Origin: Candidatus Asbonarchaeum danakilense
GTDB lineage: Archaea > Nanohalarchaeota > Nanosalinia > Nanosalinales > Nanoanaerosalinaceae
DNA: 41,119 nt
Direction of reading: 5' to 3'
NCBI GenBank assembly: GCA_034190465.1
Contig: JAXINV010000021.1
Coordinates: 1 to 41,119 of the forward strand
The notes beneath the pieces were generated by a model that was not told where the DNA came from, searched no databases, and saw nothing but the letters and a program-made list of their open reading frames with translations. Shown one piece after another: positions 3 through 36,999 of this stretch; the stretch's first letter is position 1; the number at the start of each line of letters is the position of its first letter. The position numbers and the translations under genes were made by a program.

Positions 3-168
3 TGGACTCGCGGGGATTTGAACCCCGGGCCTCCTGCTGTTCCGCGCTCGGTTCTCGGAAGGAACCTCGTCTCGAAGACCGGCGGTCTTCTCGAACCCGG
101 CTTCCCTTCCTGCGGTCGGAAAGCGGGTGTTGCGAAGCAGGCGTTCTGCCAGGCTGAACTACGAGCCC
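3..168 (-). tRNA. tRNA-Ala(CGC) with 92-nt intron at 37/38 (intron 39..130)
   Basis: Reverse complement reads GGGCTCGTAGTTCAGCCTGGCAGAACGCCTGCTTCGCA|intron|AGCAGGAGGCCCGGGGTTCAAATCCCCGCGAGTCCA. Acceptor stem has G3-U70; anticodon stem CCTGC/GCAGG; TTCG pairs with intron CGGA in a BHB-like motif. Confidence 0.93.
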
Positions 169-6753: not shown

Positions 6754-6936
6754 TGGTCCCTCCGGGTCTCGAACCCGGGACCGCCGCCTCTCTCACGACT
6801 GGCGTCCCAGTCGACAGGACGGTCGCGTTCCGATGGAACGCTCCGCCGCTGCGCGGACGGTTGAATCGCGCCGTAACAAGATAGAGACGCGATGTCCGTA
6901 TAAGGACGGTGCTCTAACCAACTGAGCTAAGGGACC
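6754..6936 (-). tRNA. tRNA-Ile(UAU) with 109-nt intron at 37/38 (intron 6790..6898)
   Basis: GGTCCCTTAGCTCAGTTGGTTAGAGCACCGTCCTTATA|intron|AGGCGGCGGTCCCGGGTTCGAGACCCGGAGGGACCA. Spliced loop is CT-TAT-AA; CTTA pairs with intron TGAG (BHB-like). Confidence 0.9.
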
Positions 6937-29898: not shown

Positions 29899-30069
29899 TT
29901 ACTCCTCGTCGTCCTCTTCCTCGCCAGCACCCTGTTTCTTGATCTGTGCGCGCTGGACGAGCTGGTTCTTGACCTTCTCCAGGATGACGATGCTTGTCGC
30001 CAGGTCGAAGCTGGAGTTTGTGTTCATCTTGCCGTCTTCGTCTACCTCGATCTCGATCGTCTGGGCCAT
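29899..30069 (-). CDS. small hypothetical protein
   Basis: MAQTIEIEVDEDG...; host-like codons and an acidic tail. Confidence 0.6.
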   Translation of the reverse strand: MAQTIEIEVDEDGKMNTNSSFDLATSIVILEKVKNQLVQRAQIKKQGAGEEEDDEE

Positions 30070-30116
30070 GGGTAACACGGAACGGTTCACGGGCTCAACA
30101 TTGAAAAAGAAATCGG

Positions 30117-30356
30117 TCACTTCCACGCCGGCATCTCATCCAGCTTCCGCCGCACATGGCGCAGCGCCTTCTCACGGTCGCCGACGTCGTGCTCAGCCAT
30201 CAGCCGGTCCGCCACCTTCTGCTCGACCGCCGAACGGGACAGCAGCTCGCCTTCGTGGTCCGCACAGGCGGAACAGTACGGGATGCCTGCATCGTCCCCC
30301 GCATGGTCCTCCTCCGACGGCATCTCAACACCGCAGCTTTCACACCGTTCAACCAT
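30117..30356 (-). CDS. zinc-ribbon protein
   Basis: CESCG..M...YCSAC...G and C-terminal MPAW. Confidence 0.75.
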   Translation of the reverse strand: MVERCESCGVEMPSEEDHAGDDAGIPYCSACADHEGELLSRSAVEQKVADRLMAEHDVGDREKALRHVRRKLDEMPAWK

Positions 30357-30387: not shown

Positions 30388-31170
30388 TCACGTGGAGTAG
30401 TCCGCGCCGAACTGGTCCAGGTTGGACTGGCTCTCCCGGAACTGGTCGTAGTCCGAGATCACGTCCTCCATCTCGACCTCGACGAACTCCAGGTCGCGTT
30501 CCGCCAGGTAGTCCTGCACGCTGTCTGACGCCTTCGGCGCGACCAGGATGCCGCGCAGCTCACGGCCCGGGAACTCGTCCTCGATCTCGTCCATGTATCG
30601 GTTCAGCTGGAGCACCGAGTTGTGGTCCGGGTTGCGCTTCACCTCGATGACCACCAGCTTGTCGTCCGTGTCCCGCGCAAAGACGTCGATGAACCCGGCC
30701 GGCGTGTCCTTCTCCCGTTCCACCACCGTCAGCCCGTCCTCCACGATGTCCGGCTCCTCCTCGATCGCCTCGTGGATATCGACCTCGTGGCCCCTGACCT
30801 GCAGGTCGCTCCGGTCCACCATCTGCGTGACATAGATCATCTCCAGTTCCTCAAACCGGATCGTCACCGTCTCCTGCGGGTCGTGGCGGCGGGAGTCCAA
30901 GACCAGCTCATCGCCGTCAATCCTCACGTCGAACGAGTCCGTCTCCGGCTGCCAGTTCTTCGGCTGGTACTGTTCCGGGCCGTGGACCAGCAGCGCGTTG
31001 TCCTGCTTCACGATGACAAGCCGCTCACCACGGTCCAGCTTTGACTTGGCCCTGCCCTGGTAGTTGACCGAGCACAGTCCTGTGACCTGGAGCACGTACG
31101 GCCGTGCGATGTACTGCTCCACGAGGTCGCGGGCCTGTTCCAGCGACGGGCCCTGGACGAGTTCCTGCAT
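30388..31170 (-). CDS. nucS: endonuclease NucS/EndoMS
   Basis: C.V.Y.GRA.S.L..GER, P.NWQP, G.IDV...D......IEVKR, QL.RY, RGILVAP. Confidence 0.95.
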   Translation of the reverse strand: MQELVQGPSLEQARDLVEQYIARPYVLQVTGLCSVNYQGRAKSKLDRGERLVIVKQDNALLVHGPEQYQPKNWQPETDSFDVRIDGDELVLDSRRHDPQETVTIRFEELEMIYVTQMVDRSDLQVRGHEVDIHEAIEEEPDIVEDGLTVVEREKDTPAGFIDVFARDTDDKLVVIEVKRNPDHNSVLQLNRYMDEIEDEFPGRELRGILVAPKASDSVQDYLAERDLEFVEVEMEDVISDYDQFRESQSNLDQFGADYST

Positions 31171-31230
31171 GGCCGCTGCTGGGGTTCGAACAGTCTTAAG
31201 GGTTGCGGCAGGTGGGAGAAAGGAAAAAGT

Positions 31231-31379
31231 GAGAGGCAGCGGGCAGCAGGCGGAGTGGGTATGGTATCGTCCTGCTGCCCGGGTTCGGAGCGGTCCTGGC
31301 TTCCCCCGGTGCGGCGGTGCTGCTGTGGGACAGGGCAGCACGACCGCGGCTGGCCGGACGGCTGTCCTCCTAGCCTCTC
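31231..31379 (-). ncRNA. candidate ~150-nt structured RNA
   Basis: Closing stem GAGAGGC/GCCTCTC, 11-bp CGGGCAGCAGG/CCTGCTGCCCG hairpin and GCGG..GTGCTGC/GCAGCAC..CCGC arm; followed by a T-rich tract. Confidence 0.6.
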
Positions 31380-31383
31380 TGTG

Positions 31384-31536
31384 TTATTGTTCTAACTGGG
31401 CGAGTGCATCGTCGAAGTGCTCAGGGCACAGCGTTTTGCCCGAGCGTTTGAACACGCCCTTCCGTTCACGGTGTTCAGGAACTCGGAGCACGAGCGGCAC
31501 CTCAAGCTGTGCACCGCACCGTTCGCAGCTTTCCAT
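31384..31536 (-). CDS. 50-aa Zn-finger-like protein (CxxC...CxxH)
   Basis: MESCERCGAQLEVP...KTLCPEHFDDALAQLEQ; strong GGAGGTGA SD upstream. Confidence 0.65.
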   Translation of the reverse strand: MESCERCGAQLEVPLVLRVPEHRERKGVFKRSGKTLCPEHFDDALAQLEQ

Positions 31537-31556
31537 TGTGTTGTCACCTCCGGAAG

Positions 31557-31706
31557 AACCGTCCGCCCGATTTGAACGGGCAGTTCCGTGCTTAGCCATC
31601 GCACCCCTGAGGAAGGTAGTGCGGTGGGTCGACACGGCGTGTTGCCAGGGAGGCCCTGGGCATGCGGTTGGAGGCAGCAGGGGCATGCCCTTGACACCAG
31701 GACGGC
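31557..31706 (-). ncRNA. tRNA-like RNA with expanded D and anticodon arms
   Basis: Acceptor GCCGTCC/GGACGGT, D-stem GTGT/ACAC with TGG, stem CCGTG/CACGG, variable loop AACT, T-arm GCCCG-TTCAAAT-CGGGC. Confidence 0.72.
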
Positions 31707-32055
31707 ACGAGAAGGATCTTTCGTCCGCCCGTGTTCCACACCCGGTGAGGCCGCGGTGAGAAGGGGAGGCGGGCTACTCGGTTATCATCTCCACATAATA
31801 TTGTGGACAAAATAGGTGGAGACTGTTGAGACTAGGTGCTTGACAAATCCTGTGGGCGTACAGCCCGTCCGAGCACCAGTCTCAACTGTCATGTGGTAGC
31901 CCTCTTACAGCACCTAAATGCCTCCCCTCCTTTAAATATGTTGCGCCAGTCAGGGTCGGCAGCCGGTAAACGATCGTAAGATTTGCTACCCGAAGATATA
32001 ACTTTTATAAGGTTCGCGTCCGCTTCGGGTTTTGAATACAAAGAGGCCGCACCCG

Positions 32056-36652: not shown

Positions 36653-36883
36653 TGGCAGGGCCCGGATTTGAACTCGAAAATCAAAGATTTTCTTGGGGTT
36701 CAAATCCACAAGCCTTTCAGTGGGTTCGCTTGCGAACCCGCTCTTGCGTGTCGACCGAGCGTAACCAGTCGGATGGCAGGGCCCGGATTTGAACCGGTCG
36801 CAGATCACAGACCATGCTCAAGGTTCAAAACACGGGCTTGTCAGCGAACGAACGTGAGATGGCAGGGCCCGGATTTGAACCGG
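36653..36883 (-). repeat. two extra copies of the tRNA-Pro 3' end, each preceded by a fold-back copy
   Basis: On the plus strand TGGCAGGGCCCGGATTTGAAC starts at 36653, 36774 and 36860; GAAAATCAAAGATTTTC hairpin at 36676-36692. Confidence 0.9.
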
Positions 36884-36932
36884 GGTCCACAGCGCCCGAG
36901 GCTGCGATGATAGTCCACTACACCACCCCGCC
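36860..36932 (-). tRNA. tRNA-Pro(CGG)
   Basis: GGCGGGGTGGTGTAGTGGACTATCATCGCAGCCTCGGGCGCTGTGGACCCCGGTTCAAATCCGGGCCCTGCCA. Confidence 0.9.
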
Positions 36933-36977
36933 ACATGACACTCAACACGCGGTGATGATGGCCGAACACAGCGGTTC

Positions 36978-36999
36978 GTCCAGTACACCACCCCGCCAC
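36978..36999 (-). repeat. copy of the tRNA-Pro 5' end
   Basis: GTCCAGTACACCACCCCGCCAC versus GTCCACTACACCACCCCGCCAC at 36913-36934 (1 mismatch). Confidence 0.85.

Follow-up and report, generated by a model that had tools for sequence, protein, structure and literature searches.

The window analysed here is the whole 41,119-nt stretch of contig C11 from the genome of Candidatus Asbonarchaeum danakilense (G000; 1.2 Mb, 61% GC). It was compared with a phylum sample of 70 genomes, of which 10 belong to the window's family (f1) and 60 lie outside it; G000 and its sister species G001 make up genus g1, G003 and G006 make up g3, and G007 and G008 fall in g5. Inspection of the minus strand upstream of nucS reveals a compact module that runs from a TATA box through ORF1, a bulged-G hairpin, a tRNA mimic, a Shine-Dalgarno sequence (SD), ORF2 and a structured 3' region to a T-tract. 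Its features, with the neighbouring gene, are as follows.

31931-31938, minus: TATA-like box TATTTAAA; a comparable box lies 31-50 nt 5' of the ORF1 ATG in 15/15 copies listed
31785-31892, minus: ORF1, a 35-codon leader peptide ending in NIMWR-stop (homologues of 31-42 codons in 9/9 main-type copies)
31825-31886, minus: core of a long hairpin within ORF1; the stem is conserved across genera while its paired letters differ between them
31789-31821, minus: second hairpin, closing shortly 5' of the ORF1 stop codon
31720-31778, minus: bulged-G hairpin (AGUA/GAA, loop-E type), the element on which the family centres, its foot lying at the ORF1 stop
31557-31706, minus: tRNA mimic, 150 nt; acceptor and T-stem pairing complete over 8 copies
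31670-31674, minus: anti-SD-like CCUCC, carried by the loop of the mimic's D-loop insert
31544-31551, minus: SD GGAGGTGA, 5 nt past the mimic discriminator
31384-31536, minus: ORF2, a 50-aa treble-clef zinc finger (CxxC..CxxH), in 9/10 family genomes
31231-31379, minus: RNA2, 149 nt, a three-way junction plus a locally paired 3' hairpin (genus-limited 3' region)
31217-31228, minus: T-rich, terminator-like tract
30388-31170, minus: nucS, a neighbour outside the module

A first-pass annotation of this DNA had described a single transcript with a TATA-like box, a long hairpin, a tRNA-like RNA, an SD directly behind it, a CxxC..CxxH micro-ORF, a second structured RNA and a T-tract. Each of these parts is present at the positions listed, the core of the tRNA-like RNA covaries across genomes, the layout supports a single promoter-to-terminator unit, and the module matches no Rfam family. 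The inner arms of the long hairpin had been slightly misquoted and read GGTGCTC/AAGCACC; this hairpin lies inside the ORF1 frame. ORF1 and the bulged-G hairpin were absent from that annotation, and the latter is the best-conserved part of the module. The proposed association with nucS applies to G000, where the module lies upstream of the gene; of 27 further nucS loci inspected, only 2 have this arrangement. In G004 nucS lies ~30 nt 3' of ORF2, and six other main-type genomes have different neighbours. Two further small ORFs lie 3' of nucS in the window: 30117-30356 (minus) encodes a 79-aa Zn_ribbon_2 protein above the Pfam cut-off, and 29899-30081 (minus) a 60-aa acidic protein with no family match.

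A hairpin-centred module in one family

The base of the bulged-G hairpin carries invariant AGUAG and CGAA strands. We take its AGUA/GAA letters to be the bulged-G motif of loop E, and the same letters occur in the family's 5S rRNA. Without model fitting, an alignment of 7 copies has two-sided changes at 8 of 17 pairs, a count reached by 2 of 500 shuffles; in a model-fitted alignment of 15 copies the figures are 10 of 17 and 0 of 500, where the fit itself favours the model and kinship of the copies inflates both counts. A refined model finds 17 copies in 10/10 f1 genomes, with one weak coding-frame match outside and no credible match among the 60 other genomes of the phylum. The first model, built from 7 copies in 5 genomes, had likewise matched 10/10 f1 genomes and 0/60 others. 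Searches outside f1 ran under strict filters; relaxing them for 5 outside genomes likewise gave nothing. The coding-frame match outside f1 lies in G064 and lacks AGUAG. C10:17304 was set aside as a coding-region match.

The copies fall into two types. Nine genomes each hold one main-type copy, in which an ORF1 of 31-42 codons with an NI[VM]W[RG]-like end is followed by ORF2; the order ORF1-hairpin-ORF2 is thus conserved in 9 genomes, and 7 of those 9 also have the mimic. The 8 second-type copies carry a different ORF of 15-31 codons and lack the zinc finger; they lie 3' of L7Ae-S28e-L24e in two genomes and 5' of aIF5B in five. The window's genome holds such a copy at G000:C22:6410-6720 (+) (L070 1421-1724), directly 3' of L7Ae-S28e-L24e, with the same hairpin and a different ORF1. 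Downstream of its own tRNA mimic come an SD and ATG-TAG; the orthologue G001:C1 (L068) has ATG-TGA. In genus g3 (G003 and G006), ORF1, the hairpin, the SD and ORF2 are kept and the mimic is at most a remnant by eye. Within the linker between hairpin and SD there (L051 617-735, minus; L052 1390-1500, plus), a short stretch resembles by eye the 3' D-strand and stub arm of the G009 mimic, a likeness in sequence that suggests decay of the mimic in g3. An ORF which appears by eye to be LAGLIDADG-like, presumably so from its motif, lies 3' of the module in both g3 genomes (L069 1942-2436, plus; L067 1-327, minus). Many copies lie within ~600 nt of a true tRNA gene (L052, L071, L073-L076, L080, L081).

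A DNA search of 61 genomes returned one strong homologue, G001 (E 1e-119), all others scoring at most 38 bits; ORF2 searches added relatives in G003, G006 and G004, each with a short ORF1 and the hairpin upstream. A pattern scan of genome contigs gave 21 stretches, 7 of them from nanohaloarchaeal or simply archaeal records at 23-73 bits; where records with the element are named, their labels read Ca. Nanoanaerosalina, Ca. Asbonarchaeaceae and Nanohalarchaeota, which makes f1 a nanohaloarchaeal family. The 14 unrelated records, at up to 22 bits, were taken as chance because they had been selected by the same pattern. Viral contigs gave 4 pattern matches, none bearing the module, metagenome match L056 was spurious, and a protein scan of genome contigs confirmed 0 of 600 candidates. 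The mimic pattern found 5 true copies across the phylum and 5 matches without a T-stem; sister DPANN phyla were covered by the exact-pattern scan only.

Two micro-ORFs and a tRNA mimic

The reading frame upstream of the hairpin ends at a nearly fixed place. An ATG-led ORF of at least 19 codons stops between -5 and +9 nt from AGUAG in 16 of 17 copies, whereas shuffled leaders do so 6-15% of the time (0.06-0.15 per copy); these limits were fixed after 15 copies had been inspected, and the copies are related. The 17th copy has an ORF of 15 codons with its stop at +7. Between G000 and G001 ORF1 differs by an in-frame 3-nt indel, and differences by codon position are 7/5/15 for G005-G008 and 7/6/15 for G005-G007; the third-position excess is smaller in pairs with G009 and missing for G007 versus G008. 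From these patterns ORF1 is probably coding, under an overlapping RNA constraint. The peptide has few acidic residues and is embedded in hairpins, and its best-conserved part is the terminal NI[VM]W[RG], seen in most main-type copies, whose codons also form hairpin. It matched no Pfam family, and its best Atlas match was 0.76. A stop this close to the hairpin foot in nearly every copy suggests that a leader peptide may exert control at the ribosome, and the unit of ORF plus bulged-G hairpin matches no family that we could name.

By its pattern of substitutions ORF2 is clearly coding: G000 and G001 differ by 8 synonymous and 2 non-synonymous codon changes, and third positions are in excess in all 7 pairs compared. 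The G004 version has CxxC..CxxC. The predicted structure (pLDDT 75) resembles treble-clef fingers, with no specific match in fold searches (best Z 4.1; Foldseek E 0.32), and the Atlas matches carry no protein names. The best PDB sequence match, uS14 (E 0.0066), was not accepted as membership. Comparison with ribosomal L24e/TRASH gave an hhalign probability of 13.6% over 21 columns, L24e-type chains appearing among the weak fold matches only. Against Pfam and NCBIfam the window protein passes no cut-off and the G004 member passes DUF7685; a DUF7685 profile search misses ORF2 in G000. No relatives were found outside the family, where the two matches obtained were weak. Basic residues equal or exceed acidic ones in most members, and together with the modelled fold class this makes a nucleic-acid- or ribosome-binding regulator the most likely role. 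Complex prediction for ORF1 with ORF2 scored 0.01.

The RNA between hairpin and SD has the core of a tRNA: a 7-bp acceptor, U8, a GUGU/ACAC D-stem, GG in the D-loop, a 4-nt variable loop, a 5-bp T-stem and a TTCRA loop, with hairpins inserted in the D-loop and at the anticodon position. Besides the seven main-type copies, both second-type copies of the window's own genus carry it. Over 8 full copies, 56/56 acceptor and 40/40 T-stem positions are paired, the copies having been located through the hairpin but the parse picked for pairing. Pair types change at acceptor positions 1, 3, 5 and 7 and T-stem positions 1 and 4; GUGU/ACAC and the D-loop GG occur in 8/8. The degenerate copy G001:C1, which keeps the acceptor (6/7 pairs) and T-arm, was left out of the count because its D-arm is lost. 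A pairwise alignment of G000 and G001 shows two-sided changes in the anticodon-like stem and the T-stem. Full copies span 106-187 nt, and the cloverleaf lies 0-3.6 kcal/mol from the minimum free energy in all 8. The computed D-stem probability is low (0.01-0.07 in 5/8), and the G000 RNA alone is unremarkable against shuffles (z -1.4; 17/200 fold as well).

Other parts are variable. The anticodon arm is a 3-4 bp stub in g4 and g5 and holds 50-65-nt inserts in g1, with no shared triplet; the discriminator is A, G, C or T across copies. The mimic copies lack the 7-nt anticodon loop with its U33, and no anticodon is conserved among them. Pair 3-70 is C-G or U-A in 8/8 copies and never G-U. Judged on its sequence, the mimic is neither a decoding tRNA nor tmRNA, the first because anticodon arm and discriminator vary. 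ARAGORN and Rfam make no call on it: Rfam returned only 2 tRNAs in the window at gathering thresholds, two chance matches in the region at E up to 10, and nothing but true neighbouring tRNAs at 11 homologous loci.

The tRNA genes of this genome have features of their own. A pattern script located two with long anticodon-loop inserts in the window, at 6754-6936 (minus) and 3-168 (minus), both missed by ARAGORN at default settings and by Rfam at gathering; their anticodons read by eye as TAT (an Ile-UAU candidate) and CGC, respectively. At 36860-36997 (minus) a partial 5' copy of tRNA-Pro with a D-loop hairpin lies just upstream of the intact gene, a layout repeated on C5, C17, C23, C31 and C36. 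A tRNA-Gly-like gene at G000:C1:99425-99760 (+) has a D-loop insert between repeated 9-mers, a long anticodon insert and a duplicated 3' end.

Processing, translation and alternative readings

The account we put first, at a little below even confidence, is that the tRNA mimic serves as a processing cassette in one TATA-to-T-tract transcript. The mimic keeps what RNase P and RNase Z read, namely the 7+5-bp top half, the T-loop and the D-loop GG elbow, and the enzymes are encoded, from which we infer excision. RNase Z is encoded in 5/5 genomes tested and Rpp29 in 10/10 f1 genomes. RNase P RNA was found in 6/10 f1 genomes, with G000 and G001 just below the Rfam cut-off, and was not found in G002, G003, G004 and G006 (80-88% complete); HARP was above the cut-off in none of 10 genomes. 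RNase P would probably cut before 31706 and RNase Z after 31557. Three products would result: an ORF1 mRNA, short and with the bulged-G hairpin at its 3' end; the released tRNA-shaped RNA, 105-190 nt long; and an mRNA for ORF2 with its SD 5 nt from the new 5' end. Against the cassette, g3 keeps the ORFs and hairpin with at most a mimic remnant, which makes the mimic dispensable there.

The position of the putative cuts relative to the SD allows a further step. An SD and ATG follow within ~25 nt of the discriminator in all 8 mimic copies parsed, and the 16S 3' end GATCACCTCC was found in G001, G005 and G007. CCUCC occurs in the D-loop insert in 5 of 6 copies with a GGAGG trailer and in 0 of 2 without. 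G009 has lost both, and its loop pairs its own trailer at -7.9 kcal/mol versus -2.3 to -3.9 with 7 other trailers; this change favours the idea that follows, and its being a single event counts on the other side. In the uncut precursor the CCUCC loop would pair with the SD and hold ORF2 off, and the RNase Z cut would sever the tether and free the SD. We propose that, with the tether broken in this way, zinc-finger output would track tRNA-processing activity. Such gating in cis is tentative and rather unlikely. Loop-SD pairing is not significant in any copy (shuffled-loop p 0.11-0.76) and the loops are C-rich anyway; in G004 the match is by wobble only. Pairing of the loops with 16S rRNA near position 340 was rejected, the G001 16S stretch holding no complement.

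ORF1 may be joined to this scheme. A ribosome terminating at the ORF1 stop would most likely pause at the hairpin foot, and the whole could then form a processing-gated translational switch in which the anti-SD loop holds the SD until the RNase Z cut and ORF1 with the bulged-G hairpin senses ribosome activity. This fuller version is doubtful. If true, it would make a zinc-finger regulator, along with the anti-SD tRNA-shaped RNA that is released, depend on tRNA maturation and translation, a state that may report host attachment in this symbiont. Against gating in general, the SD of the second g1 copy is followed by an ATG-stop, which leaves no protein to control.

The main rival to gating in cis is action of the excised RNA in trans. 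Here the tRNA-shaped RNA would be the main product, a stable scaffold presenting CCUCC to SD-led mRNAs or mimicking the 16S tail, and can be likened to S. aureus RNAIII, which has C-rich loops. CCUCC is kept amid differing flanking loop bases, and the 16S tail of the family, TCACCTCC, recurs in the G008 loop. Both the G007 and the G008 loop find stronger partners in the trailers of other genomes than in their own, a point against gating in cis, and they fit the consensus GGAGGTGA trailer best, at -15 to -16 kcal/mol. The absence of CCUCC from 3 of 8 copies and the G009 loop, whose change follows its own trailer, argue the other way, and we consider action in trans distinctly unlikely on these sequence patterns.

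Control by an uncut leader has prospects about as slim. ORF1 would be an arrest peptide, and a ribosome paused at its stop would refold the leader and thereby determine how far ORF2 or neighbouring translation genes are expressed; the mimic would be no more than a protein-binding or stabilising domain. The stop position and the conserved NI[VM]W[RG] end fit such a role, as does the placement of second-type copies after L7Ae-S28e-L24e and/or before aIF5B. The stop statistic carries the thresholds and relatedness described above, however, and RNA structure may explain the conserved codons, which form hairpin. No conserved alternative fold was found, pairing of the 5' leader occurs in g1 only, and T-rich tracts lie 3' of several second-type copies.

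That the mimic is a real tRNA with non-canonical introns, or a relic of a tRNA gene or tRNA-linked mobile cassette, is very improbable and largely refuted already. The genome does have many long-intron tRNAs and part-duplicated tRNA genes, and modules often lie beside tRNA genes; but the copies share no anticodon, neither insert junction shows a bulge-helix-bulge by eye (G000 and G001 have a 5x5 internal loop), the g4 and g5 arm could not accommodate a 5-bp stem with a 7-nt loop, and three genera show compensatory changes, which speaks against a relic in decay. We give a still poorer chance to a type I/III toxin-antitoxin-like or other peptide-RNA addiction unit, with ORF1 as the toxic peptide and the RNA or ORF2 as antidote. 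A peptide of 31-42 aa, low in acidic residues, buried in hairpins and accompanied by ORF2 in 9/9 main-type copies would suit it; most ORF1 members lack a clear transmembrane segment by eye, however, the family has one or two copies per genome throughout, no antisense unit was seen, and no viral contig matched credibly.

The first-pass annotation had favoured pairing between the tRNA-like RNA and RNA2 across ORF2, as an RNP or switch. RNA2 does fold better than 200/200 shuffles (z -4.6), but it is confined to its own genus: it is absent in G004, g3 and g5. The mimic accompanies ORF2 in 7/9 main-type copies, RNA2 in only 2/9. The complementarity described exists in G000, where CCTGCTGCC at 31673-31681 matches GGCAGCAGG at 31271-31279; a second CCTGCTGCC at 31242-31250, 20 nt away, closes a local hairpin with GGCAGCAGG. 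Ensemble pair probability for GGCAGCAGG is 0.99-1.0 locally versus 0.0 at long range, in a model that cannot represent kissing or pseudoknot pairs, so the comparison of species weighs more. In G001 both strands of the local hairpin are altered (GGTGGCAGG/CCTGCCACC); the two original 9-mers are missing, and the RNA1 loops do not follow. The GCCGTCC copy said to pair with the acceptor strand is present in G000 RNA2 and absent from that of G001, and the acceptor/D-stem-like layout claimed for RNA2 (TA plus GGAG/CTCC) is not conserved there. Genus g5 (L072-L075) has at least 2-3 TGAC(C/T)AGAG repeats 50-200 nt 3' of ORF2, which are complementary to 7-8 nt of the mimic 5' strand or could be protein-binding sites, and some contact between 3' region and mimic is possible. 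With the partner strand occupied locally, both matches lost in the sister species and RNA2 missing from 7 of 9 main-type copies, pairing of the two RNA domains across ORF2 is highly improbable.

Relation to known systems

The module forms an RNA family that covariation supports and that Rfam lacks. It occurs throughout the sampled genomes of a single DPANN family, small genomes that retain little that is unneeded. It escapes standard scans for tRNAs and other RNAs, and most gene callers would pass over an ORF as short as ORF1. No description was found in the literature searched, a body in which most subscription papers and bioRxiv supplements were beyond reach. The main text of a study on this family lacks the terms 'non-coding', 'ncRNA' and 'small RNA' (10.1101/2022.05.20.492899). 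Unclassified structured RNAs are also reported from the nanohaloarchaeon Ca. Nanohalococcus occultus, and the five whose sequences are printed have neither the AGUAG..CGAA hairpin nor the mimic core by eye (PMC10266531).

Other parallels are to single components. Brz-type haloarchaeal small zinc-finger proteins (PMC2253796) and DUF7685 likewise place a 50-60-aa Cys/His finger in a small-gene unit; unlike them, the window's ORF2 lies above no Pfam or NCBIfam cut-off, and the searches found it no relatives outside the family. The bulged-G hairpin shares the AGUA/GAA letters closing a helix with the 5S rRNA loop E/sarcin-ricin motif, but is a 55-60-nt hairpin directly after a stop codon with no other 5S similarity and no Rfam match. 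tmRNA also combines a tRNA-like domain lacking an anticodon with a short reading frame. It has the G3-U70 alanine identity, a tag frame inside the tRNA-like domain without a start codon, and the partner SmpB. The module, in contrast, has no G3-U70, its ORFs lie outside the tRNA-like domain with ATG starts, and ARAGORN does not call it.

The closest likeness is to mascRNA and menRNA (MALAT1, MEN-beta), which are tRNA mimics in longer transcripts that keep acceptor, T-arm and D-loop GG elbow without a conserved anticodon, are cut by RNase P and RNase Z via the elbow and are not aminoacylated (PMC11693755). In mascRNA both enzymes measure elbow and top half (PMC11693755, PMC4033280), and like it the mimic here would set the 3' end of the upstream RNA. 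Unlike mascRNA, the present mimic is archaeal, larger than a tRNA through its hairpin inserts where mascRNA is smaller, and placed between two micro-ORFs, with putative cleavage; the mascRNA Rfam model does not match it. The upstream RNA would end in a bulged-G hairpin, where that of MALAT1 ends in a triple helix. Within archaea, a tRNA-like structure in the pre-5S rRNA of Haloferax volcanii is a substrate of tRNase Z (PMC3296008), and there as here a cut 3' of the element would create the 5' end of the next RNA. In the present module, by contrast, that next RNA would be an SD-bearing mRNA, and the element has all four arms of the core. Cleavage of the mimic, if it takes place, would demonstrate for archaea that a protein-coding transcript can be punctuated in tRNA fashion; the archaeal precedent found concerns rRNA. 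A tRNA mimic as a cutting signal is already known, and what is new is an enlarged archaeal one with an anti-SD loop between two micro-ORFs.
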